Assembly (NCBI GenBank): GCA_944388695.1
Contig: CALXJT010000004.1
Location: 1-55,261 of the forward strand
Direction of reading: 5' to 3'
From: an uncultured Clostridia bacterium
GTDB taxonomy: Bacteria; Bacillota; Clostridia; TANB77; CAG-508
DNA: 55,261 bases
Position 1 is the stretch's first letter. The number at the start of each line of letters is the position of its first letter. Shown piece by piece: positions 3,121-46,269 of this stretch. The translations under genes were made by a program, and so were the position numbers. The notes under the pieces are model-generated. The model worked only from the letters and a program-made list of their open reading frames with translations. It did not search any database and was not told the DNA's origin.

Positions 3121-3327
3121 AAACTCTGAATAAGAGAGTATAACTCTAAAATAAAAAAGAATAAATTTCCGAGTAAAAGGGAGTGACTCTGAATTTTAAG
3201 AATACTTAAATTTCTGGATAAGAATGAATGGTATTGAAGTTAAGAAAATAAATTTCCGAATAAAAGGAATGTTCCTGAAGGTTTTAAGAAAATTAAGTTC
3301 CGAACAAAAAGGAGTGGAAATTCGGAG
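3121..3327 (+). repeat. Degenerate tandem array of five ~42-45 bp units related to the family-1 palindrome arm
   Basis: Units start ~3121, 3163, 3208, 3250, 3295 (aaatttccgagtaaaagggagtgactc; aaatttccgaataaaaggaatgttcc; aagttccgaacaaaaaggagtgg) versus the arm ttccgaacaaaatggagtgtccc. Confidence 0.7.
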
Positions 3328-6928: not shown

Positions 6929-8866
6929 ATGGCAGAAGAAAGAATTGAAAAACAAGAAGAGAGAAAAAATGAAAAAGTATTAGAAAGAAAACCAAGACAA
7001 TCAAGAAATACAAAAGCAAGAAAAAATAAAGAGGAAATAAGTTATAAAAATAGTAATGAAAAAAATACTCTTGTAAAGAAGACAAGAAAACCACGTAAAG
7101 GTTCAGAGCAAAAAGAAGGAGAGCAAAGAGAAAAAACAAAAAGAGTAGCAGGAAGTAAAAGTTTAAAGAAAAATACTAAAAAAGAGGATAGTAAATCTAT
7201 TTTTAAAAACTCAAAGTTAAAGATTATTCCTTTAGGAGGATTACACGAAGTTGGTAAAAATATTACAGTTTTTGAGTATGAAGATGATATTGTAGTCGTA
7301 GATTGTGGATTATCATTTCCAGAGGATGATATGTTAGGAATAGATTTAGTTATACCAGATATATCATATCTTGAAAAAAATAAAGAGAAGATAAGAGGAA
7401 TGGTTATTACACATGGACATGAGGACCATATAGGAAGTGTACCATATTTCTTAAAGCAAATAAATGTGCCAATTTATGCACCAAGATTAGCTGTAGGATT
7501 AATTAAAAATAAATTAGAAGAGCATAAATTATTGAGAAGCACTAAATTAGTAGAAGTTATGCAAGGACAAACAATTAAATTAGGTAAGAATTTTAGTATT
7601 GAATTTATAAGAAGTACACATAGTATACCAGATTCAGTTATGTTGGCAATAACTACACCAGTTGGAACTGTATTGCATACAGGAGATTTTAAAGTTGACT
7701 TTACACCAATAGATGGAAATATAATGGATTTTGGAAGAATAGCAGAACTTGGAAATCAAGGAGTATTAGCATTAATGTCAGATAGTACAAATGCAGAAAG
7801 AAAAGGATTTACAATGTCTGAAAGTTCTGTAGGAGAAGTTTTTGATAAATTATTTATTCATTGTACAAAAAGAATAGTTGTCGCAACTTTTGCTTCAAAT
7901 GTTCATAGAGTTCAACAAATTGTAAATGCAGCTGTAAAATATGGTAGAAAAATAGCAGTTTGCGGTAGAAGTATGATTAATATGATTACAACTGCAAGAG
8001 AATTAGGGTATATAGAATGTCCTGAAGATTTATTTATCGATATTGATATGATTGGAACATATAATGACGAACAATTAGTAATAATTACAACAGGAAGTCA
8101 AGGAGAGCCAATGTCTGCATTAACAAGAATGGCAGCAGGAGATCATAGAAAAGTAAAAATAACTCAAAATGATTTAGTAATTATATCAGCTAATCCTATA
8201 CCAGGAAATGAAAAATTTGTATCAAAAGTAATAGATGATTTAATGCAAATTGGTGCTGAAGTTGTATATAGTGCTTTAGCAGATGTTCATGTTTCTGGAC
8301 ATGCATGTCAAGAAGAGCAAAAATTAATATTGGCTTTATCAAAACCAAAATATTTTATCCCAGTACATGGTGAATATCGTCAATTAATGGCTCATGCAGA
8401 AACAGCATTAAGTATGGGAATTGAGCAAAAAAATATTATATTAATGTCAAATGGTAGAGTTTTAGAGATGGATGAAAATGAAGCTAAATTTACAACTACA
8501 GTTCCTAGCGGAAGAGTTTTAGTAGATGGATTAGGTGTAGGAGATGTAGGAAATGTTGTATTAAGAGATAGACAACATTTATCTCAAGATGGATTAATAG
8601 TAATAGTTTTAACAATGGATTCTACAACAGGAGAAGTTGTTGCAGGTCCAGATGTTATTTCAAGAGGATTTGTTTATGTTAAAGAATCTGAAAGTTTAAT
8701 GGATGATGTGAAATCTGTAGTACGTCATGAAATTAAGAAATGTGAAGAAAGAAATATTCGTGATTGGTCTACTATAAAATCTACAGTTAGAGAAAACTTG
8801 AAAGATTATATCTTTATGAAAACAAAGAGAAATCCTATGATTATACCAATTATTATGGAAGTATAG
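6929..8866 (+). CDS. rnj: Ribonuclease J with a charged, probably disordered N-terminal extension
   Basis: PLGGLHEVGKN, THGHEDHIG, HSIPD, DSTNA, HVSGHA; ATG 6929 follows aggagg. Confidence 0.95.
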   Translation: MAEERIEKQEERKNEKVLERKPRQSRNTKARKNKEEISYKNSNEKNTLVKKTRKPRKGSEQKEGEQREKTKRVAGSKSLKKNTKKEDSKSIFKNSKLKIIPLGGLHEVGKNITVFEYEDDIVVVDCGLSFPEDDMLGIDLVIPDISYLEKNKEKIRGMVITHGHEDHIGSVPYFLKQINVPIYAPRLAVGLIKNKLEEHKLLRSTKLVEVMQGQTIKLGKNFSIEFIRSTHSIPDSVMLAITTPVGTVLHTGDFKVDFTPIDGNIMDFGRIAELGNQGVLALMSDSTNAERKGFTMSESSVGEVFDKLFIHCTKRIVVATFASNVHRVQQIVNAAVKYGRKIAVCGRSMINMITTARELGYIECPEDLFIDIDMIGTYNDEQLVIITTGSQGEPMSALTRMAAGDHRKVKITQNDLVIISANPIPGNEKFVSKVIDDLMQIGAEVVYSALADVHVSGHACQEEQKLILALSKPKYFIPVHGEYRQLMAHAETALSMGIEQKNIILMSNGRVLEMDENEAKFTTTVPSGRVLVDGLGVGDVGNVVLRDRQHLSQDGLIVIVLTMDSTTGEVVAGPDVISRGFVYVKESESLMDDVKSVVRHEIKKCEERNIRDWSTIKSTVRENLKDYIFMKTKRNPMIIPIIMEV

Positions 8867-8908: not shown

Positions 8909-10576
8909 ATGAGAATAGAAATGGATTATAAAGATTTAGCAAATTTAATTTTTCCAGATGCAAAAGATATAAAATATTATGAAGAAAAATATCCAGAAAG
9001 AAACTTAAAAGAAGGGGCAATAGTAACAAGAATTGCCCCAAGTCCAACTGGATTTATACATATAGGAGGATTATACCAAGGTCTTATTGCAAAAAAACTT
9101 GCAAAACAAACAGAAGGGGTATTTTTTATAAGAATAGAAGATACAGACCAAAAGAGATTAGTAGAAAATGGCGTAATGGAGATTGTAGAATCATTAAATA
9201 ATTTTGGTTTTGAACCAGATGAAGGAATGGTAACTGAAACTGAATCAAAAGGTGAGTACGGACCATATAGACAATCCTTAAGAAAAGATATCTATCAAAG
9301 TTATGCAAAATATTTAATTGAACAAGGAAAGGCATATCCATGTTTTTGTTCAACAGAAGAAATAGAAGAAATAAGACAAAAGCAAGAAGCTGCCAAAATA
9401 AGACCAGGATATTATGGAGTATGGGCTAAATGTAGAAATTTAACAGTAGAAGAAATGATAGAAAGAATAAAAAATGGAGAAAATTATATAGTGCGTTTTA
9501 AATCACCAGGAAGAGAAGATAGAAAAATAAAACATCATGATTTAATAAAAGGAAATGTAGATTTTCCAGAAAATGACCAAGATATAGTTATAATTAAAGC
9601 AGATGGTTTACCAACATATCACTTTGCACATGCTGTTGATGACCATTTAATGAGAACAACACATGTTATTCGTGGTGATGAGTGGCTTTCATCTATGCCA
9701 GTGCATTTACAATTATTCCATGAATTAGGATTTAAAGCCCCTAAATATGCACATATAGCTCCAATAATGAAAAACGATAATGGAAATAAGAGAAAATTAA
9801 GTAAGAGAAAAGACCCAGAAGCTGCTGTTTCATATTATGTAGAAATGGGAATTCCAAAAGAAGCGGTTTCAGAATATTTATTAAATATAGCTAATTCAAA
9901 TTTTGAAAATTGGAGAAGAGCAAATAAAGATACATCAATAGATGATTTTGAATTACAAATAAATAAAATGAGTGTAAGTGGAGCTCTATTTGATATGGTA
10001 AAATTATTAGATGTAGGAAAAACAGTAATATCAAAATATACAGCTGAAGAAGTATATAACAAATCAAAAGATTGGGCAAAAACATTTGATGAAGAATTAT
10101 ATTCAATACTAGATAAAGATAAAGAATATGCATTAAAAGTATTTGGAATAGAAAGAGGAAATAAAAAACCAAGAAAAGATATTGCAAAATGGTCAGATGT
10201 AAAAGAAAATATAGAATATATGTATGACGAATTATTTGAAAAAAATAAACAAGATTACGAATATCAAGTTATATCTGATAAGAAAGAAATAGAAAAGATA
10301 TTAGACTTATACATAAATAAATATTATGATGAAAATGATGACAAACAAACATGGTTTGACAAAATAAAAGAGTTATCAGGAGAAATGGGATTTGCAAAAG
10401 AAGTAAAAGAATTCAAAGAAAATCCAGGAAAATATAAAGCACATGTTGGAGATGTAAGTACAGTTTTACGTGTTGCATTAACTAAAAGAACAAATACTCC
10501 AGATATGTATGAAATAATGAAGATATTAGGTAAAGACAGAATCCAAAAAAGATTTGAGCAAGCCAAAAATAATTAA
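8909..10576 (+). CDS. gltX: Glutamate--tRNA ligase (start may be ATG 8921)
   Basis: RIAPSPTG, HIGG (HIGH), IEDTD, THVIRGDEW, KLSKR (KMSKS). Confidence 0.92.
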   Translation: MRIEMDYKDLANLIFPDAKDIKYYEEKYPERNLKEGAIVTRIAPSPTGFIHIGGLYQGLIAKKLAKQTEGVFFIRIEDTDQKRLVENGVMEIVESLNNFGFEPDEGMVTETESKGEYGPYRQSLRKDIYQSYAKYLIEQGKAYPCFCSTEEIEEIRQKQEAAKIRPGYYGVWAKCRNLTVEEMIERIKNGENYIVRFKSPGREDRKIKHHDLIKGNVDFPENDQDIVIIKADGLPTYHFAHAVDDHLMRTTHVIRGDEWLSSMPVHLQLFHELGFKAPKYAHIAPIMKNDNGNKRKLSKRKDPEAAVSYYVEMGIPKEAVSEYLLNIANSNFENWRRANKDTSIDDFELQINKMSVSGALFDMVKLLDVGKTVISKYTAEEVYNKSKDWAKTFDEELYSILDKDKEYALKVFGIERGNKKPRKDIAKWSDVKENIEYMYDELFEKNKQDYEYQVISDKKEIEKILDLYINKYYDENDDKQTWFDKIKELSGEMGFAKEVKEFKENPGKYKAHVGDVSTVLRVALTKRTNTPDMYEIMKILGKDRIQKRFEQAKNN

Positions 10577-14303: not shown

Positions 14304-14433
14304 GCGAACATTAGGACACTCCATTTTGTTCGGATAAAAATAGAATTTTAATTTTTTCTATCCGAACAAAAAAGAGTGTCCCCAATGTTCTCCGAACAAA
14401 ATGGAGTGTCCCTAATGTTCGCCTAATGTTTGC
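14304..14433. repeat. Family-1 REP-like palindrome, copy A (right arm tandemly duplicated)
   Basis: gcgaacattaggacactccattttgttcgga (14304-14334); right arms at 14361-14390 and 14391-14422. Confidence 0.9.
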
Positions 14434-15842: not shown

Positions 15843-16373
15843 ATGTCAGATAAAAAAGATTTAAAAGAAAATGAAGTAACAGAAAACAATGAAGAGTTAA
15901 ATGAAACACAAAACGATGGAACAGCTAATGTAAAAGAACAATTAAAGCAAAAGGAACAAGAATTAGAAGATATCACAGATAGATATAAAAGAATATTAGC
16001 TGAATTTGAAAATCATAAGAAAAGAAGTCAAAAAGAAAGAGAAGGATTATATAATATGGTTTTATCAGATGTAGTATCAGCAATGCTTCCAATATTAGAT
16101 AATCTAGAAAATGCAGCAAAAGTAGAGACAAAAGATGAAGAATATAAAAAAGGAATAGAACTTGTACTTAAACAATTTCAAGATACATTAAAATCAAAAG
16201 GTGTAGAAGAAATAAAAGCATTAGGAGAGATATTTGACCCAGAGTTACATGAAGCAGTAAGTAGTGTTCAAGATGATACAAAAGGTGAAAAAGAAATTGT
16301 TCAAGAATATAGAAAAGGATATAAAATTGGTACAAAAGTAATTAGACATTCTATGGTAGTTGTAGCAAATTAA
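15843..16373 (+). CDS. grpE: Nucleotide exchange factor GrpE
   Basis: AEFENHKKR, FDPELHEAV, KGYKIG...IRHSMVVV. Confidence 0.95.
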   Translation: MSDKKDLKENEVTENNEELNETQNDGTANVKEQLKQKEQELEDITDRYKRILAEFENHKKRSQKEREGLYNMVLSDVVSAMLPILDNLENAAKVETKDEEYKKGIELVLKQFQDTLKSKGVEEIKALGEIFDPELHEAVSSVQDDTKGEKEIVQEYRKGYKIGTKVIRHSMVVVAN

Positions 16374-20106: not shown

Positions 20107-21354
20107 ATGAAGAAATATGCAAAAAAAATAAGTTTATTTTTTTCATTTATTGTAATGACATTACTATTTTTTAATTATTCGTATGCATTAACACCTATCT
20201 CCGAGCCAATTTATAATGGAATTGATGTAAGTAATTGGCAAGGATATATATCATATGATAGAGTGAAATCATCTGGAATAGATATAGTATATATAAAAGC
20301 AAGTCAGGGAACAACTTTTAAGGACCCATATATGGAATATAATTATTCTCAAGCCAAAGCGAATGGATTAAAAGTAGGATTTTATCATTTTCTAACAGCG
20401 ACTAATGAAGCAGAAGCACGAAGACAGGCTGAATTTTTTGTGTCTGTTATAGCTGGAAAAGAAGTTGATTGTAAGTTAGCAATGGATTTTGAACAGTTTA
20501 ATGGTGGTATTACAGTACCAGAAATACGAAGGATATCAAATGTGTTTTTAGAAACAGTTAAGCAATTATCTGGAAAAGAAGTTATAGTTTATAGTAATTT
20601 GAGTGATGCGCAAAATGTATTTGGTCAAGAAATAGCAAATAAATATCCACTATGGATTGCATATTATGGTTCAGAACAACGTTTGATTAATTCTAATTCT
20701 GCATGGAGTAGATGGAGTGGATGGCAATATACAAGCCAAGGAAGTGTTTCAGGAATTCAAGGATATGTAGATAGAAATATATTTACAAGTGATGTATTAT
20801 TAGGGCAAAGTACTGAAGTGCCAGGAAATTCAGGAGAAACGCCAAATGCAAATGATGATAATATACAGTATGTAGTTAAAAGAGGTGATACTTTAAGCCA
20901 AATTGCAAGGAGATATAATACTACTGTTACAAATTTAGTTAATTTAAATAATATAAGTAACCCTAATTTAATATATCCAGGTCAAGTGATTTATATTAGT
21001 AAAGCTGGTGTAGAATCAGAGCAGGAAACAAATGAAATGGGATGTGTAGTCTATACAGTAAAATCAGGTGATAATTTATCAAGTATTGCCAATAGATATG
21101 GAACGACAGTGCAAAAAATAATTAATTGTAATAAGATTTCAAATCCTAACTTAATATATCCAGGTCAAAAAATAAGAATACGAGTAACTACTGTAGCTGA
21201 TAATGATACCCAGATTCAATATGTTGTAAAAAGAGGAGATACTTTATGGAGTATTTCAAGAAGATATGGAGTAAGTATAGAAACTATAGTGAAAAATAAT
21301 AATATAACAAATAGAAATTTAATATATCCAGGTCAGACTTTATTAATAAATTAG
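20107..21354 (+). CDS. Secreted GH25 muramidase with three LysM domains
   Basis: Signal peptide, GIDVSNWQG, IKASQG, DFE; three YxVKxGD...NLIYPGQ LysM repeats. Confidence 0.9.
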   Translation: MKKYAKKISLFFSFIVMTLLFFNYSYALTPISEPIYNGIDVSNWQGYISYDRVKSSGIDIVYIKASQGTTFKDPYMEYNYSQAKANGLKVGFYHFLTATNEAEARRQAEFFVSVIAGKEVDCKLAMDFEQFNGGITVPEIRRISNVFLETVKQLSGKEVIVYSNLSDAQNVFGQEIANKYPLWIAYYGSEQRLINSNSAWSRWSGWQYTSQGSVSGIQGYVDRNIFTSDVLLGQSTEVPGNSGETPNANDDNIQYVVKRGDTLSQIARRYNTTVTNLVNLNNISNPNLIYPGQVIYISKAGVESEQETNEMGCVVYTVKSGDNLSSIANRYGTTVQKIINCNKISNPNLIYPGQKIRIRVTTVADNDTQIQYVVKRGDTLWSISRRYGVSIETIVKNNNITNRNLIYPGQTLLIN

Positions 21355-22180: not shown

Positions 22181-22547
22181 GCTTTTTAATAATGTTTTTA
22201 TTAGAATTAAAATTAATAATTCAAGGCGATAAAATTAAAAAATCAGCTAGACATAAATAAAAAAAAAAGATATAATATATAAGAATAAATTAAATATTTA
22301 ATGGGAGATAGACAAGAAAATAATTAAAAATATAAAAGCAGTAAGAATATAATAAAAACAAGTAAAGGCTCAAAAAAATGTTGGAAAAGATATTTAAAAA
22401 ATGAGCAAAAAATAAAAGAAAAAATTCGAAAAATACTTAAAATGTGAGAGTAAAACTATAAAGAATAAATGAAACAAAAATTAGAAAATGAAAATTATAA
22501 AATTACAAAAAATATATTTTCATTTCTAAAAGAGGAATGTGATAAAA

Positions 22548-35773: not shown

Positions 35774-35879
35774 TTTGGTCGGATTTTGAGGCGAATTTTG
35801 GGGACACTCCATTTTGTTCGGAAAAAAATTTTACGAACAAAATGGAGTGTCCCCAAAATTCGACCAAAATCCGACTAAA
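35774..35879. repeat. Family-1 REP-like palindrome, copy B
   Basis: Perfect 29-bp arms at 35792-35820 and 35834-35862, plus outer stem gtcggattttg/caaaatccgac. Confidence 0.92.
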
Positions 35880-39090: not shown

Positions 39091-39173
39091 AAAAGACGAA
39101 CGTTGGGGACACTCCATTTTGTTCGGGAAAAATTTTTCCGAACAAAATGGCGTGTCCCTAACGTTCGCCTTTT
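39091..39173. repeat. Family-1 REP-like palindrome, copy C
   Basis: cgaacgttggggacactccattttgttcgg-gaaaaattttt-ccgaacaaaatggcgtgtccctaacgttcg. Confidence 0.92.
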
Positions 39174-42294: not shown

Positions 42295-43404
42295 TTATAT
42301 ATTTAAAGTCATCAAAATTGCGTCTTCACTATTGTTATAATAATTTTTTCTTCTACCATCTTCGATAAAATTGAATTTCTTATAAAGTGAAATTGCAGGA
42401 AAATTATTTTCATTAACTTCTAGATGAATTTTTTCAATATTTAAACTTTGAGCATAGTTAATTAATTTTTCTAAAAGTAATTTTCCAATACCTTGTCTCC
42501 TAAAGTTATTTTTTATAGCTATATTCATAATTTCAGTTTCATCTAAAATTGTTTTTATTCCACCAAATCCAACTATTTCTTTATCAATCTTTGCAACAAA
42601 AAATGTAGAATTAGTAGAGTTTAATTCATCACTTAATTGGTTCAAATTCCAAAATTCATCAAATAAAGAAATATCTAAATCTTTTAAATCAGAAATATCC
42701 ATTTTATCAAAAGATAATGTTTTATTTTCCAATTGTCTCTGTGCTTGAGGCTTTTTTAGATATAGAGGTAAAAGTTCCTCATCGCTATTATTTTGATATT
42801 TTTCAATTCCTGCTAATCCCAAAGTATAAGTATCAAGATTTGATGGGTTATCTGGTATTAGACTATAGTTCTTAATCGTATTTTTAATACTTTCAGAAAA
42901 TATGTTGATATTTTCTCCAATAAAAGTGATATTAGAATCTGAATATTTATATTTTAGAAGTTCAAGGCAATTTTCTATGCTATCAGCTTTTGAATCACTA
43001 ATAACTGTAAAAGAGTTGTTATCTTTTTTGTATAATGCGTAATAGCAATTATTATTTTTACAGTCAATTAAACTACAAATTATTCCATTTGATGTAATTT
43101 TTCTAGCATAACATTCAAGAGAACTGATGCCAATAGTTTTTATATTTAAACTATCAGAAAATGCTTTTGCAGTAGCTACCCCTATTCGTATACCAGTAAA
43201 TGAGCCAGGACCAATATCACATACTATTAAATTGATATTTTTTATAGATATATTATTTTTAGTTAATATTTCTTGAATTGTTGGCATTAAAATTTCTGAA
43301 TGAGTTAATCCCTCATTTTTTTCTATTTTATCTATTAAATTTGTGTTTTCTAGTAATGCAACACTACAAATTTTGCTAGATGTTTCTATACAAAGAGTTT
43401 TCAT
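42295..43404 (-). CDS. tsaB: Fused TsaB (t6A pathway) and RimI-like N-acetyltransferase
   Basis: IETSS, GPGSFTGIRIG, PLYLK; then GNAT RRQGIG, LEV...N..AI.LY, GRRKNYY...EDA. Confidence 0.88.
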   Translation of the reverse strand: MKTLCIETSSKICSVALLENTNLIDKIEKNEGLTHSEILMPTIQEILTKNNISIKNINLIVCDIGPGSFTGIRIGVATAKAFSDSLNIKTIGISSLECYARKITSNGIICSLIDCKNNNCYYALYKKDNNSFTVISDSKADSIENCLELLKYKYSDSNITFIGENINIFSESIKNTIKNYSLIPDNPSNLDTYTLGLAGIEKYQNNSDEELLPLYLKKPQAQRQLENKTLSFDKMDISDLKDLDISLFDEFWNLNQLSDELNSTNSTFFVAKIDKEIVGFGGIKTILDETEIMNIAIKNNFRRQGIGKLLLEKLINYAQSLNIEKIHLEVNENNFPAISLYKKFNFIEDGRRKNYYNNSEDAILMTLNI

Positions 43405-43553: not shown

Positions 43554-44027
43554 TTATAAATTTTTAATAAGTGATTCAAGAATAAATTCAGAACGAGTTC
43601 CATTTGTTTCAAAATTTAAAATTCTTGAATTTTCAGAATCTTTATCCTTTGAAAAAGTGATTTTTAGTATATCATTTGGTAAAGCGTCTTGAATTATTTC
43701 ACCCCATTCAATAATAGAAATTCCTTTTTCAAAATATTCTTCTCCACCAATTTCATAAAATTCAGAAGAATCTTCTAATCTATATACATCAAAGTGAAAA
43801 ATGGTTGTGCTATCATTTTTATATTCATTTACAATTGTAAAAGTTGGGCTAGAGATTTCATCTTCTAAATTAAAATATGATAAAATTCCTTCTGTAAATT
43901 TTGTTTTTCCACAACCTAATTCACCAGTTAAGACAATAATATCTTTTTCTTTCAAAAAACTTGCTAGTTTTCTTGCAATTATTTTTGTTTCATTTTCTGA
44001 ATTTGTTTTTAAATGATAATTTTTCAT
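43554..44027 (-). CDS. tsaE: tRNA threonylcarbamoyladenosine ATPase TsaE
   Basis: GELGCGKT, SPTF, HFDVYRL, IEW. Confidence 0.95.
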   Translation of the reverse strand: MKNYHLKTNSENETKIIARKLASFLKEKDIIVLTGELGCGKTKFTEGILSYFNLEDEISSPTFTIVNEYKNDSTTIFHFDVYRLEDSSEFYEIGGEEYFEKGISIIEWGEIIQDALPNDILKITFSKDKDSENSRILNFETNGTRSEFILESLIKNL

Positions 44028-44085
44028 GTTTTATCCTTTATTATAAATTTAGATTTTTAAGAAAATCTATAAACTTTATGCACAT

Positions 44086-44114
44086 ATTATAATACATATA
44101 TTAGGATATTTCAA
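44086..44114 (-). promoter_or_regulatory. Sigma-A promoter of tsaE; -35 overlaps the base of the family-2 hairpin
   Basis: Minus strand TTGAAA (44114-44109), 17 nt, TATAAT (44091-44086). Confidence 0.6.
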
Positions 44115-44168
44115 GTAGAGGAAGTGGTCAATTGGGGACGGGTCCTGATTGACCATTTCCTCCACTTG
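44112..44168. repeat. Family-2 palindrome, left copy
   Basis: caagt-a-gaggaagtggtcaattgggga-cggg-tcctgattgaccatttcctc-c-acttg. Confidence 0.85.
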
Positions 44169-44170
44169 TA

Positions 44171-44242
44171 AGCGAACAATAGGGACACTCAATTTTGTTC
44201 GGAAAATTTTCCGAACAAAATCGAGTGTCCCTATTGTTCGTT
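44171..44242. repeat. Family-1 REP-like palindrome, copy D
   Basis: cgaacaatagggacactcaattttgttcgg-aaaatttt-ccgaacaaaatcgagtgtccctattgttcg. Confidence 0.92.
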
Positions 44243-44314
44243 CTGCAGTCTGATATGCTGTTTGTTACTTTCAGAATATCTCCCTCAAAAAAGTGTGGGA
44301 TGTAAGGAAAAACA

Positions 44315-44905
44315 TTATTTCTTTTTTTCGATATGAGGTTCTTGTGAAGAAAAAGCTATAATTCCTCCTTTTAGTCGAAAGGCATATGCTGTAAAGCCAT
44401 TCTCTGGGTCAATAGTTTTAGAAATTTTGCTTTCTAAAGTGAATTCTTGAGGTTTCCCCATTTTTTCTAGACAACTGCTGTCTTTATAAATATAAAAGTC
44501 AGGTGCATCGTTAGTAAGCTGATATTCTTTTCCATCTGTCCAGAACATGATATCGATAATGGAGTTTGAAGAATCCTGTGCTGCTTTATAAGTTTCGATA
44601 TCATTTGTTAACTTTTCTACATTTGTTTGAGACTCTTCAAGCTGATTCTTAAGGCTTTGGTTTTCTGTTTCTAATTCTGTTATCTGGTTTGTTTTTTTCT
44701 GGTAACTAGAATTTTCTTGTTTTAATTTTTCGTTTTCATCTTCAAGGGTTTTATTTTTTTCTTGAAGACTTTCGACTTGAGTTTTATAGCTTTCAAGTTC
44801 TTTTGAATCCGTATTACTAGAATTTCCACAGCCAGTTAAGGCGATTGAAAATACTAATAATACAAAGGTTGTTAATAAATAGTGATAGTTTCTCCGTGTT
44901 TTCAT
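44315..44905 (-). CDS. Hypothetical lipoprotein with a long coiled coil and small C-terminal domain
   Basis: SD aggagg, lipobox LTGC, heptad-rich region; own promoter TTGAAA-17-TATAAT (44967-44939). Confidence 0.8.
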   Translation of the reverse strand: MKTRRNYHYLLTTFVLLVFSIALTGCGNSSNTDSKELESYKTQVESLQEKNKTLEDENEKLKQENSSYQKKTNQITELETENQSLKNQLEESQTNVEKLTNDIETYKAAQDSSNSIIDIMFWTDGKEYQLTNDAPDFYIYKDSSCLEKMGKPQEFTLESKISKTIDPENGFTAYAFRLKGGIIAFSSQEPHIEKKK

Positions 44906-44955
44906 ATGTTTTTCCTCCTATATATATAATATGAGTATATTATATCATAAAATTT

Positions 44956-45135
44956 ACATAATTTCAATTTTTACTAGTGGTTAATTGGGCTCGATGGCCA
45001 ATCGGGATAATCGGGACCCGTCCCCAATTGACCACCTGTTCCAAATAGACCACATAATTTCAATTTTTGGTCAGTGGTTAATTTGGACCCGTCCCCAATT
45101 GACCACCAATAGATCACCCAATAGATCACCCGTTT
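44956..45135. repeat. Family-2 palindrome, two right-hand copies in a ~96-bp tandem duplication
   Basis: ggacccgtccccaattgaccac at 45014-45035 and 45085-45106 (exact reverse complement of 44124-44145); acataatttcaattttt duplicated. Confidence 0.85.
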
Positions 45136-45184
45136 CCAATTAATTATCCATTCAAAAGAAAATTAACAAAATTGGGAAAAGCTA

Positions 45185-45230
45185 TTGATAAATAATTCCA
45201 AATGTAATATAATTGCAATATATTTGTAAT
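45185..45230 (+). promoter_or_regulatory. mreB sigma-A promoter overlapped by three 11-bp-phased TG(T/C)AAT boxes
   Basis: TTGATA-17-TATAAT; tgtaat 45203, tgcaat 45214, tgtaat 45225. Confidence 0.55.
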
Positions 45231-45267
45231 AAAAATGAAAAATATTAGATTAGTGAGGGAAAGATTT

Positions 45268-46269
45268 ATGTTTAAGTTCGGACAAGATGTTGGTATCGAT
45301 TTAGGTACAGCAACAGTTATTGTATATGTAAAAGGTAAAGGAATAGTTTTAAGAGAGCCATCAGTTGTAGCTGTTGATAGTAATACAGGAGAAGTTTTAG
45401 CAGTAGGAGGAGAAGCAAGAAGAATGTTAGGAAGAACTCCAGGAAATATTATAGCTACAAGACCATTAAGAGATGGTGTTATTTCTGATTATACTGTTAC
45501 AGAGAAAATGCTTAAATATTTTATAAATAAAGTATGTGGAAAGTTTGTTTTTTCTCCAAGAATTATGATATGTATCCCTTCACAAGTTACAGAGGTAGAA
45601 AAGAAAGCGGTAATTGATGCTGCAACACAAGCAGGAGCAAGAAAGGTTTATTTAATAGAGGAACCAATTGCCGCAGCAATAGGAGCAGGAATAGATATAG
45701 CAAAACCATGTGGAAATATGGTAGTAGATATTGGTGGAGGTACTACAGATATTGCAGTTATTTCACTAGGAGGATCAGTTGTAAGTAGTTCTTTAAAAGT
45801 AGCGGGAGATAAGTTTGATGAAGCTATAGTAAAATATATAAAGAAAAAACATAATATAGCTATAGGAGAAAGAACAGCTGAAGATTTGAAGGTGAATATA
45901 GGATGTGTATATCCAAAAATGCAAGATGTAGAGATGGATATAAGAGGAAGAGATTTAATAACAGGACTTCCAAAAACAGTTACTATACATTCTTCAGAGA
46001 TGTTAGAAGCATTGATAGAACCTGCAATGATGATAGTTGATGCAGTTCATGGTGTATTAGAAAGAACTCCACCAGAACTTGCAGCAGATATTAGTGATAA
46101 GGGAATCTACATGACAGGTGGAGGATGTTTAATAGACGGATTAGATAGATTATTACAAGAAAAAACAGGAATAAATGTAATGATAGCACAGGATACAGTA
46201 TCATGTGTGGCTTTAGGCACGGGAAAAGCGTTAGAAAATTTAGACATTTTAGATGGTAAGATTAGATAA
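45268..46269 (+). CDS. mreB: Rod shape-determining actin homolog MreB/Mbl
   Basis: GIDLGTA, EPSVVA, RPLRDGVI, DIGGGTTD, TGGG; stand-alone with no mreCD, so possibly mbl. Confidence 0.9.
   Translation: MFKFGQDVGIDLGTATVIVYVKGKGIVLREPSVVAVDSNTGEVLAVGGEARRMLGRTPGNIIATRPLRDGVISDYTVTEKMLKYFINKVCGKFVFSPRIMICIPSQVTEVEKKAVIDAATQAGARKVYLIEEPIAAAIGAGIDIAKPCGNMVVDIGGGTTDIAVISLGGSVVSSSLKVAGDKFDEAIVKYIKKKHNIAIGERTAEDLKVNIGCVYPKMQDVEMDIRGRDLITGLPKTVTIHSSEMLEALIEPAMMIVDAVHGVLERTPPELAADISDKGIYMTGGGCLIDGLDRLLQEKTGINVMIAQDTVSCVALGTGKALENLDILDGKIR

Follow-up and report, generated by a model that had tools for sequence, protein, structure and literature searches.

The window analysed here, a stretch of 55,261 nucleotides from an uncultured Clostridia bacterium, carries a small lipoprotein gene between inverted copies of a 22-nt repeat, and this study concerns the nature of these repeats and their relation to the gene. 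The locus lies on contig C4 of a draft genome of 1.595 Mb (86 contigs, 26.5% GC), and the sequencing runs that contain it are chiefly chicken-gut metagenomes. The left neighbour is the conserved gene tsaE (43554-44027, minus strand; Pfam TsaE, E 3e-40), and the right neighbour is the conserved gene mreB (45235-46269, plus strand; Pfam MreB_Mbl, E 3.7e-143). The 196-aa lipoprotein open reading frame (ORF; 44315-44905, minus strand), with the lipobox LTGC and a GGAGG ribosome-binding site, is the sole gene in the tsaE-mreB interval. [quoted passage not shown]

The exact 22-mer GTGGTCAATTGGGGACGGGTCC was found at 44124-44145 (+), 45014-45035 (-) and 45085-45106 (-), as the initial annotation had stated, and it had zero occurrences over 100 shuffles, even with up to 3 mismatches. 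Every 22-mer copy is itself an imperfect palindrome, in line with the view that each repeat end is a hairpin. The left copy (copy L, 44123-44158, plus strand; nhmmer E 1.5e-11) is contained in an extended 57-nt hairpin with locus-specific outer arms (44112-44168), and the fold of 44110-44170 reached -17.9 kcal/mol (z -6.5). On the right, REP-A (44976-45035, minus strand; nhmmer match 45005-45035, E 6.6e-9) has about 25 extra loop nucleotides and a fold of -13.8 kcal/mol (44970-45040, z -2.7). The fold of REP-B (45073-45106, minus strand; nhmmer E 5.1e-11) is weaker, at -6.8 kcal/mol (45065-45112, z -1.9). A 17-nt direct repeat (family D6; 44956-44972 and 45052-45068, plus strand, 100% identical, spacing 96) precedes both right-hand REPs, so REP-A with its flank looks like a duplicate, about 96 nt long, of REP-B with its flank. 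Two degenerate 12-nt reiterations of the REP arm (family D3, 45106-45129, plus strand) lie outside REP-B. Degenerate reiterations of the 5' arm, 10-12 nt long, also stand beside REPs on C5 (about 29370), C13 (about 20838-20860) and C32 (8798-8812). Such reiterations could represent additional binding sites or have arisen by slippage. No direct repeat that could be a target-site duplication flanks the outer ends of the 22-mer pair. At position 44146, in the left repeat, contigs of all four sequencing runs compared below show C for the T of the window (GGGTCCC for GGGTCCT). Runs X19 and X14 had this variant in all covering contigs; it made up most of the X18 depth and a minority of the X13 depth.

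A second palindromic family, called family-1, adjoins the left hairpin, as had been noted in the initial annotation: an inverted doublet of 68 bp with 34-nt arms and no spacer (44173-44240) starts a few bases past 44168, in the 3' region of the lipoprotein gene. Its arms are 97% complementary, and its fold reached -34 kcal/mol (z -11.8). Searches for known RNA families at the locus gave only sub-threshold look-alikes of miRNA precursors, on this 68-bp hairpin. The family-1 unit is 31 nt long and its consensus contains GGGGACAC; with 93 units at 58 loci across the genome, it outnumbers the 22-mer family. Within the window, it was found at 3299-3316, 14305-14421, 35792-35862 and 39097-39167 as well as at the locus. 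Neighbouring units within 120 nt were arranged 25 times as (+-), 6 times as (++), 4 times as (--) and never as (-+); the doublets of this family are all (+-).

Promoter-like sites adjoin the repeats. The site for the lipoprotein gene (44939-44967, minus strand) has TTGAAA at 44967, a 17-nt spacer and TATAAT ending at 44939; it matches 11 of 12 consensus positions, with TG before the -10 box, and lies 9 nt from REP-A, and its assignment is a consensus match only. The putative tsaE site runs from TTGAAA at 44114 to TATAAT at 44086. The earlier remark that the -35 boxes sit at or next to the repeats is thus right for both sites, but the region holds 6 promoter-like sites against 6.0 in shuffles, so there is no excess.

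The 22-mer belongs to a dispersed family. Its core GGGACGGGT occurs 24 times genome-wide against 0.11 expected, and a profile made from the core copies found 28 copies at E<=0.05 on 11 contigs, of which 26 are intergenic. The unit is an imperfect palindrome of about 35 nt with the consensus of about TGGTCAATTGGGGAC-GG-GTCCCAATTGACCA; the 22-mer is its better-conserved arm, and the direction of the unit follows from one additional G in the 5' arm. Copies occur as singles, as tandems (C3, C21) and as inverted doublets, and all four pairs of opposite-orientation neighbours within 200 nt are (+-) (C2, C5, C6, C10). Many copies are followed by a T-run. No relation was found between the orientation of the copies and the direction of the neighbouring genes. 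Next to 24 aligned copies there was no conserved GTAG tag, and CGTC stands at the hairpin tip rather than at the end. Among 200 other genomes of the genus, a 20-mer of the repeat (up to 2 mismatches) was detected in only 6, with the largest number of hits, 10, in G080; a reversed-pattern control gave 0. The spoIIIA operon (C3:16346-22192) lies between arrays of the repeat, (-,-) at 16244-16340 and (+,+,+) at 22212-22370. These data indicate that the 22-mers are members of a REP/TIR (terminal inverted repeat) family of a known kind, with a RAYT/TIRYT-type gene.

This gene is located on contig C32 (C32:8904-9698, minus strand) and encodes a 264-aa Y1 protein (Pfam Y1_Tnp, 50.5 bits, cut-off 23). 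It is the sole intact Y1 gene of the genome, and it is surrounded by REPs at 8811-8844 (+), 9792-9825 (-) and 9900-9936 (-). The statement that no transposase or integrase is present holds for the locus, and no RAYT-type gene lies within the window, but the genome does have a matching Y1 gene. The initial annotation was well directed in foreseeing a RAYT or Y1 gene beside the same motif, since the C32 gene has the matching inverted layout. Across 19 homologs of the C32 protein, little or no variation was seen in PNHIHL (the HUH motif), GHxFENRF and RYIHQNP, and both the HUH and the Tyr motifs are conserved. Its C-terminus gave a weak match to HTH_23 (E 0.0049, 17.1 bits, under the 24.6 cut-off), and this tail is conserved in the 19 homologs.

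Homologs of the C32 enzyme were found in 147 of the 200 other genus genomes searched. The closest ortholog, 73% identical, is that of G080, and it is flanked (+,+,+ ... -,-) by a variant of the palindrome with GGGGACAGG. The repeat thus appears, from this sequence comparison, to co-vary with the Y1 gene between the present genome and G080. GGGGAC(A/G)G palindromes on both flanks, in (+ ... -) order, were seen at 6 of the 24 ortholog loci examined. By analogy with studied systems, the C32 protein is probably the cognate enzyme of the REP/TIR family. No Y1 gene was found beside any copy of family-1 that was seen. A Y1 remnant at C57:2578-2881, between two housekeeping-looking genes, was rejected as the family-1 partner; it is a decayed IS200-like sequence with several stop codons and no family-1 flanks. 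The genome has two doublet-forming palindromic families but a single intact cognate gene.

No conspecific strain was found among metagenome contigs by a TsaE scan, which gave 80 loci, the best of them 73% identical. At least half of the locus words were present in 20 of the 24 sequencing runs listed, from 10 studies, and the Logan contigs of four runs from four studies (X13, X14, X18, X19) were compared with the locus. The gene was covered in all four runs, and one X14 contig (record 11, independent study) spans the filled allele from 43725 to 45538 with 14 differences. Run X13 also yielded a gene-less allele, a 359-nt contig (record 5, depth 6.42), besides filled-allele contigs at a depth of about 5. 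This contig consists of 49 nt up to 44177, 8 unrelated filler nucleotides and 45076-45378 (6 differences), with a 10-nt tandem duplication after 44158. Its left flank (44156-44177) is unique in the genome. The missing 898-bp segment (44178-45075) comprises the family-1 doublet, the lipoprotein gene, REP-A and the spacer, and the gene-less allele retains the left REP and REP-B, which there make up an ordinary doublet spaced by about 40 nt.

It follows from the one available comparison of strains that the repeats do not accompany the lipoprotein gene. Since the outer repeats remain when the gene is absent, the gene does not appear to be the cargo of a repeat-bounded transposon. The expectation of an empty site among strains was borne out in one run, but its breakpoints (44177/44178 and 45075/45076) lie inside the repeat pair and both outer repeats are kept, so the 22-mers do not delimit the variable segment as had been supposed. 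Joints from 44157/44158 to 45075 in X19, X13 and X18 (shorter side 30-31 nt) were rejected as empty sites and read as likely cross-mapping of other doublets, because the X19 contig that ends at 45106 continues in sequence that matched, by eye, the C5 REP cluster in reverse-complement orientation. One X14 contig fits the window only from 44942 rightwards and one X18 contig only up to 44963, each continuing for about 255 nt that do not resemble the window; they could represent additional alleles at the boundary between the promoter and REP-A, or other organisms.

At 15 of 28 same-genus loci in relatives, tsaE and mreB are direct, divergent neighbours with only about 110-330 bp between them. These loci include that of G080, which has no repeat there despite the shared repeat family. 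Apart from these loci and G024 (described below), mreB is mostly not nearby, and a few loci end at contig ends. This adjacency indicates that the lipoprotein gene and the repeats are additions in the present lineage. In G024 (G024:C56, L038 555-2452), the tsaE-mreB interval holds a different gene, whose 462-aa product is membrane-anchored and gave a borderline match to 3-keto-disaccharide hydrolase; an inverted repeat with 72-nt arms stands alongside. Several species of the genus carry a RAYT-type paralog (41-48% identity to the C32 protein) beyond mreB, on the same contig and about 3.5 kb away from tsaE (G148:C33, G097:C3, G016:C3, G007:C4, G021:C44, G006:C21). Elsewhere in the window, tsaB and a GNAT (rimI-like) acetyltransferase form a single 369-aa ORF at 42295-43404, and the two parts are separate tblastn pieces in many relatives.

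The lipoprotein itself consists of a lipobox signal peptide, a helix of about 90 residues and a C-terminal beta domain of about 75 residues (AF2 model, mean pLDDT 81.6). Among 5.8 billion proteins, it matched three clusters only (97% identical, 89% identical and a truncated form), and the 97% and 89% variants are metagenomic, the latter on a 5081-bp contig. The best hit across 337 other species of the genus was 35% identical, and 9 species reached E<=1e-8; these distant relatives occupy other loci, where no repeat of the 22-mer family was found within 1.5 kb. The genome holds no second copy of the gene, and tblastn found no match among 50,697 phage or 72,556 plasmid records that would point to such an origin. 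Pfam and NCBIfam searches gave only coiled-coil noise below the cut-offs. For the C-terminal fold, the best Foldseek match in the PDB was a non-significant one (E 0.64), to the SH3-type cell-wall-binding part of an endolysin, and Atlas features, with scores of at most 0.85, pointed toward SH3b-like domains; the latter is a lead only. By its sequence relations, the gene is a species-specific, fast-diverging accessory gene. The idea of an accessory insertion thus stood, with tsaE and mreB adjacent in relatives and no homolog above 35% identity in the 337 species.

Base composition was less telling. The contrast in GC content claimed in the initial annotation exists with tsaE (31.5% in the lipoprotein gene against 23.6%), but mreB reaches 33.7% and 8.6% of 600-bp genome windows reach 31.5%. 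The GC content at third codon positions (GC3) of the gene is 23.9%, the 95.7th percentile of 1087 ORFs of at least 150 aa. The codons CGG and CGA are used, as had been remarked, once each. A foreign origin was therefore rejected as a conclusion from GC content, since the gene is no GC outlier.

We believe that the locus is probably a REP/TIR doublet, served by the cognate enzyme encoded on C32, and that the lipoprotein gene is an accessory gene in a repeat-rich hotspot, not cargo bounded by the repeats. By analogy with studied RAYTs, the C32 enzyme, of the RAYT/TIRYT type, would bind and nick the folded single-stranded repeats. Such nicking would spread the repeats as singles, tandem copies and inverted doublets resembling REPINs (REP doublets forming hairpins). 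One such doublet stands between tsaE and mreB, and in this genome its halves are set apart by the 898-bp segment, which carries the lipoprotein gene with its own putative promoter, the family-1 doublet behind the gene and the duplicated REP copy. The segment was most likely gained or lost by illegitimate or hairpin-stimulated recombination, in either direction; the event could have been an insertion into the doublet spacer or a deletion with filler nucleotides. The hairpins behind the lipoprotein gene may also terminate its transcript or make it more stable, and may insulate the promoter of tsaE.

Several observations weigh against this explanation. The gene-less allele is one 359-nt contig from one of the four runs, and its left side covers only 49 nt, and tsaE is not on the contig. 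The right breakpoint falls exactly at the foot of REP-B, which is compatible with a repeat-directed cut; such a cut is possible though not required. The layout REP(+), minus-strand gene, REP(-), REP(-) is common to the loci on C4 and C32. A total of 28 copies is a low number for a classical REP family. The C32 protein scored 58 bits with the NCBIfam RAYT model NF047646, whose cut-off is 80, although profile positions 6-146 of 146 were matched, and a sequence search found no solved-structure relative of it.

The hairpins could also be kept mainly for their effect on transcripts, that is, for ending, insulating or stabilising them between closely packed divergent genes, and the pairing around the lipoprotein gene would then be incidental. 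This fits the intergenic position of 26 of the 28 copies and the T-runs after many of them, and the lipoprotein stop codon and the promoter-like site of tsaE do have the family-1 doublet and the left REP between them. On the strand of the lipoprotein gene, however, no U-tract follows the 68-bp hairpin, and repeat orientation is unrelated to the direction of neighbouring genes. A role in transcripts would also leave the spread of the repeats and the flanked transposase gene unexplained. As the main reason for the arrangement it seems unlikely, although it keeps some weight, and a transcript role and the doublet explanation can both hold at once.

It is less likely still that the repeats served as portable homology, through which the gene came from another strain or locus by recombination between repeats, with REP-A as the scar and family-1 as the other anchor. 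In favour of this origin, REP-A and its 17-nt flank duplicate REP-B and its flank, the segment has the family-1 doublet at one end and a REP at the other, and 5 nt (CGAAC) are common at the left junction. However, only very short homologies are available, 5 nt at the left end and about 30 nt at the right; the gene-less allele contains 8 filler nucleotides, and neither this genome nor the 337 other species yielded a donor locus.

The cassette of the initial annotation is quite improbable as a whole, and cassette movement by a RAYT-type enzyme is unlikely. In its favour are the matching Y1 gene, whose own locus has the same REP(+) ... REP(-) REP(-) layout and is of similar size (1126 against 984 bp), the accessory nature of the lipoprotein gene with its high GC3 percentile, and the right breakpoint at the REP-B foot. 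Against it, the left REP and REP-B persist in the gene-less allele, the gene is present in a single copy, and no 22-mer-type repeats lie within 1.5 kb of its distant relatives in G080, G054 and G006. Sequence similarity between the C4 and C32 loci is confined to the repeats, and the C32 locus was accordingly rejected as a template for the C4 locus. Kilobase-scale (+ ... -) pairs that enclose genes other than a transposase number two in the genome: the present locus and C13:18041/20802, which encloses a thioesterase gene (tes) and pyk. The pgi-tes-pyk order is conserved in the genus without these repeats, so the search for other inverted 22-mer pairs led to core genes in conserved synteny instead of cargo. 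By orientation, the kilobase-scale pairs are 2 (+ ... -) against 2 (- ... +), the latter on C3 (spoIIIA operon) and C6. Because the C13 pair holds core genes and the orientations are 2 against 2, pair geometry carries no signal at this scale. No cargo was found between other close REP pairs. The proposal of swappable cargo was not upheld: a second copy of the gene, other cargo flanked by these repeats and a target-site duplication at the outer ends were all not found. An integron attC reading was set aside as well, for the locus lacks an integrase, its repeats are inverted and not unidirectional, and the family is dispersed.

A variant of the idea, in which inverted doublets of RAYT/TIRYT repeats act as landing pads and the Y1 enzyme nicks the hairpin feet so that gene segments enter or leave the spacer, is likewise very doubtful. 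If it were true, REPIN-like elements could hold and release cargo such as a surface lipoprotein gene. An assembly artefact, in which the gene was joined into the contig through the repeats, might be suspected in an 86-contig draft where repeats invite misjoins, but its chance is practically nil, since the single X14 contig with its 14 differences spans the filled allele, which rules out misassembly, and all four runs cover the gene.

The locus can be compared with gene exchange systems of other kinds. Mobile insertion cassettes are elements resembling MITEs (miniature inverted-repeat transposable elements), with a passenger gene between insertion sequence (IS) ends. The present locus is alike in having a transposase-free gene between inverted copies of a transposase-associated repeat; it differs in that there is no target-site duplication, only one copy exists and the repeats remain without the gene. 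The minimal mobile elements of Neisseria hold variable genes between conserved neighbours, exchanged via flanking homology. Here too a small accessory gene lies between two housekeeping genes, and G024 has another gene at the same junction. The differences are that exchange through the flanking genes is here hypothetical and that the host is not known to be transformable.

The initial annotation had considered the locus the best candidate for an undescribed system. As far as the published descriptions consulted go, it instead fits the REP/REPIN-RAYT systems and, more closely, the TIRtron/TIRYT systems (PMC3733652, PMC6006769). The inverted repeats of TIRtrons share the motif GGGGWSAS (Di Nocera et al. 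2013, PMC3733652). TIRYTs are subclass 2.1 of the TnpA_REP-like Y1 proteins and have helix-turn-helix (HTH) tails, the C-terminal types being HTH_23, HTH_28 or Bac_DnaA_C (Quentin et al. 2018, PMC6006769). To the extent that these accounts allow a comparison, the likeness is close: the RAYT-like Y1 protein has a putative C-terminal HTH tail (the HTH_23 match being below the Pfam cut-off), and its gene lies between inverted, partly self-complementary repeats that are also moderately abundant as singles, dimers and clusters. The sequence GGGGACAG of G080 and other relatives (loci L140, L142, L146, L154, L156) fits GGGGWSAS, and so does the family-1 consensus. The differences are that this genome's own repeat, GGGGACGG, agrees at 7 of 8 positions of the motif, and that the host is an uncultured Clostridia genome.

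RAYT Group 1 has been reported in Clostridia (Bertels et al. 2017, PMC5581495). With the REP/REPIN-RAYT systems, in the parts of their descriptions available to us (PMC3116915, PMC2817692, PMC5581495), the present family shares short extragenic palindromes that recur as inverted doublets, a single-copy Y1 gene that has its own repeats on both sides, and an apparent co-variation of repeat and gene between species. It differs in having 28 copies in place of hundreds, no conserved GTAG at the repeat end, and a C32 protein under the NCBIfam RAYT cut-off. REPs have also been described as targets of insertion sequences (Tobes and Pareja 2006, PMC1525189). Within what that source describes, the likeness lies in foreign DNA within a REP cluster, and the difference in a segment without a transposase or IS ends.

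The locus also gives a caution: inverted repeats around a gene resemble a cassette, yet in the strain comparison the repeats stay in place when the gene is absent. Overall, the present case illustrates in detail a RAYT/TIRYT-repeat system from an uncultured genus of AT-rich gut Clostridia. If it is true that the repeats guide gene gain or loss, REPIN-like elements would acquire a role, so far undemonstrated, in the exchange of accessory genes.

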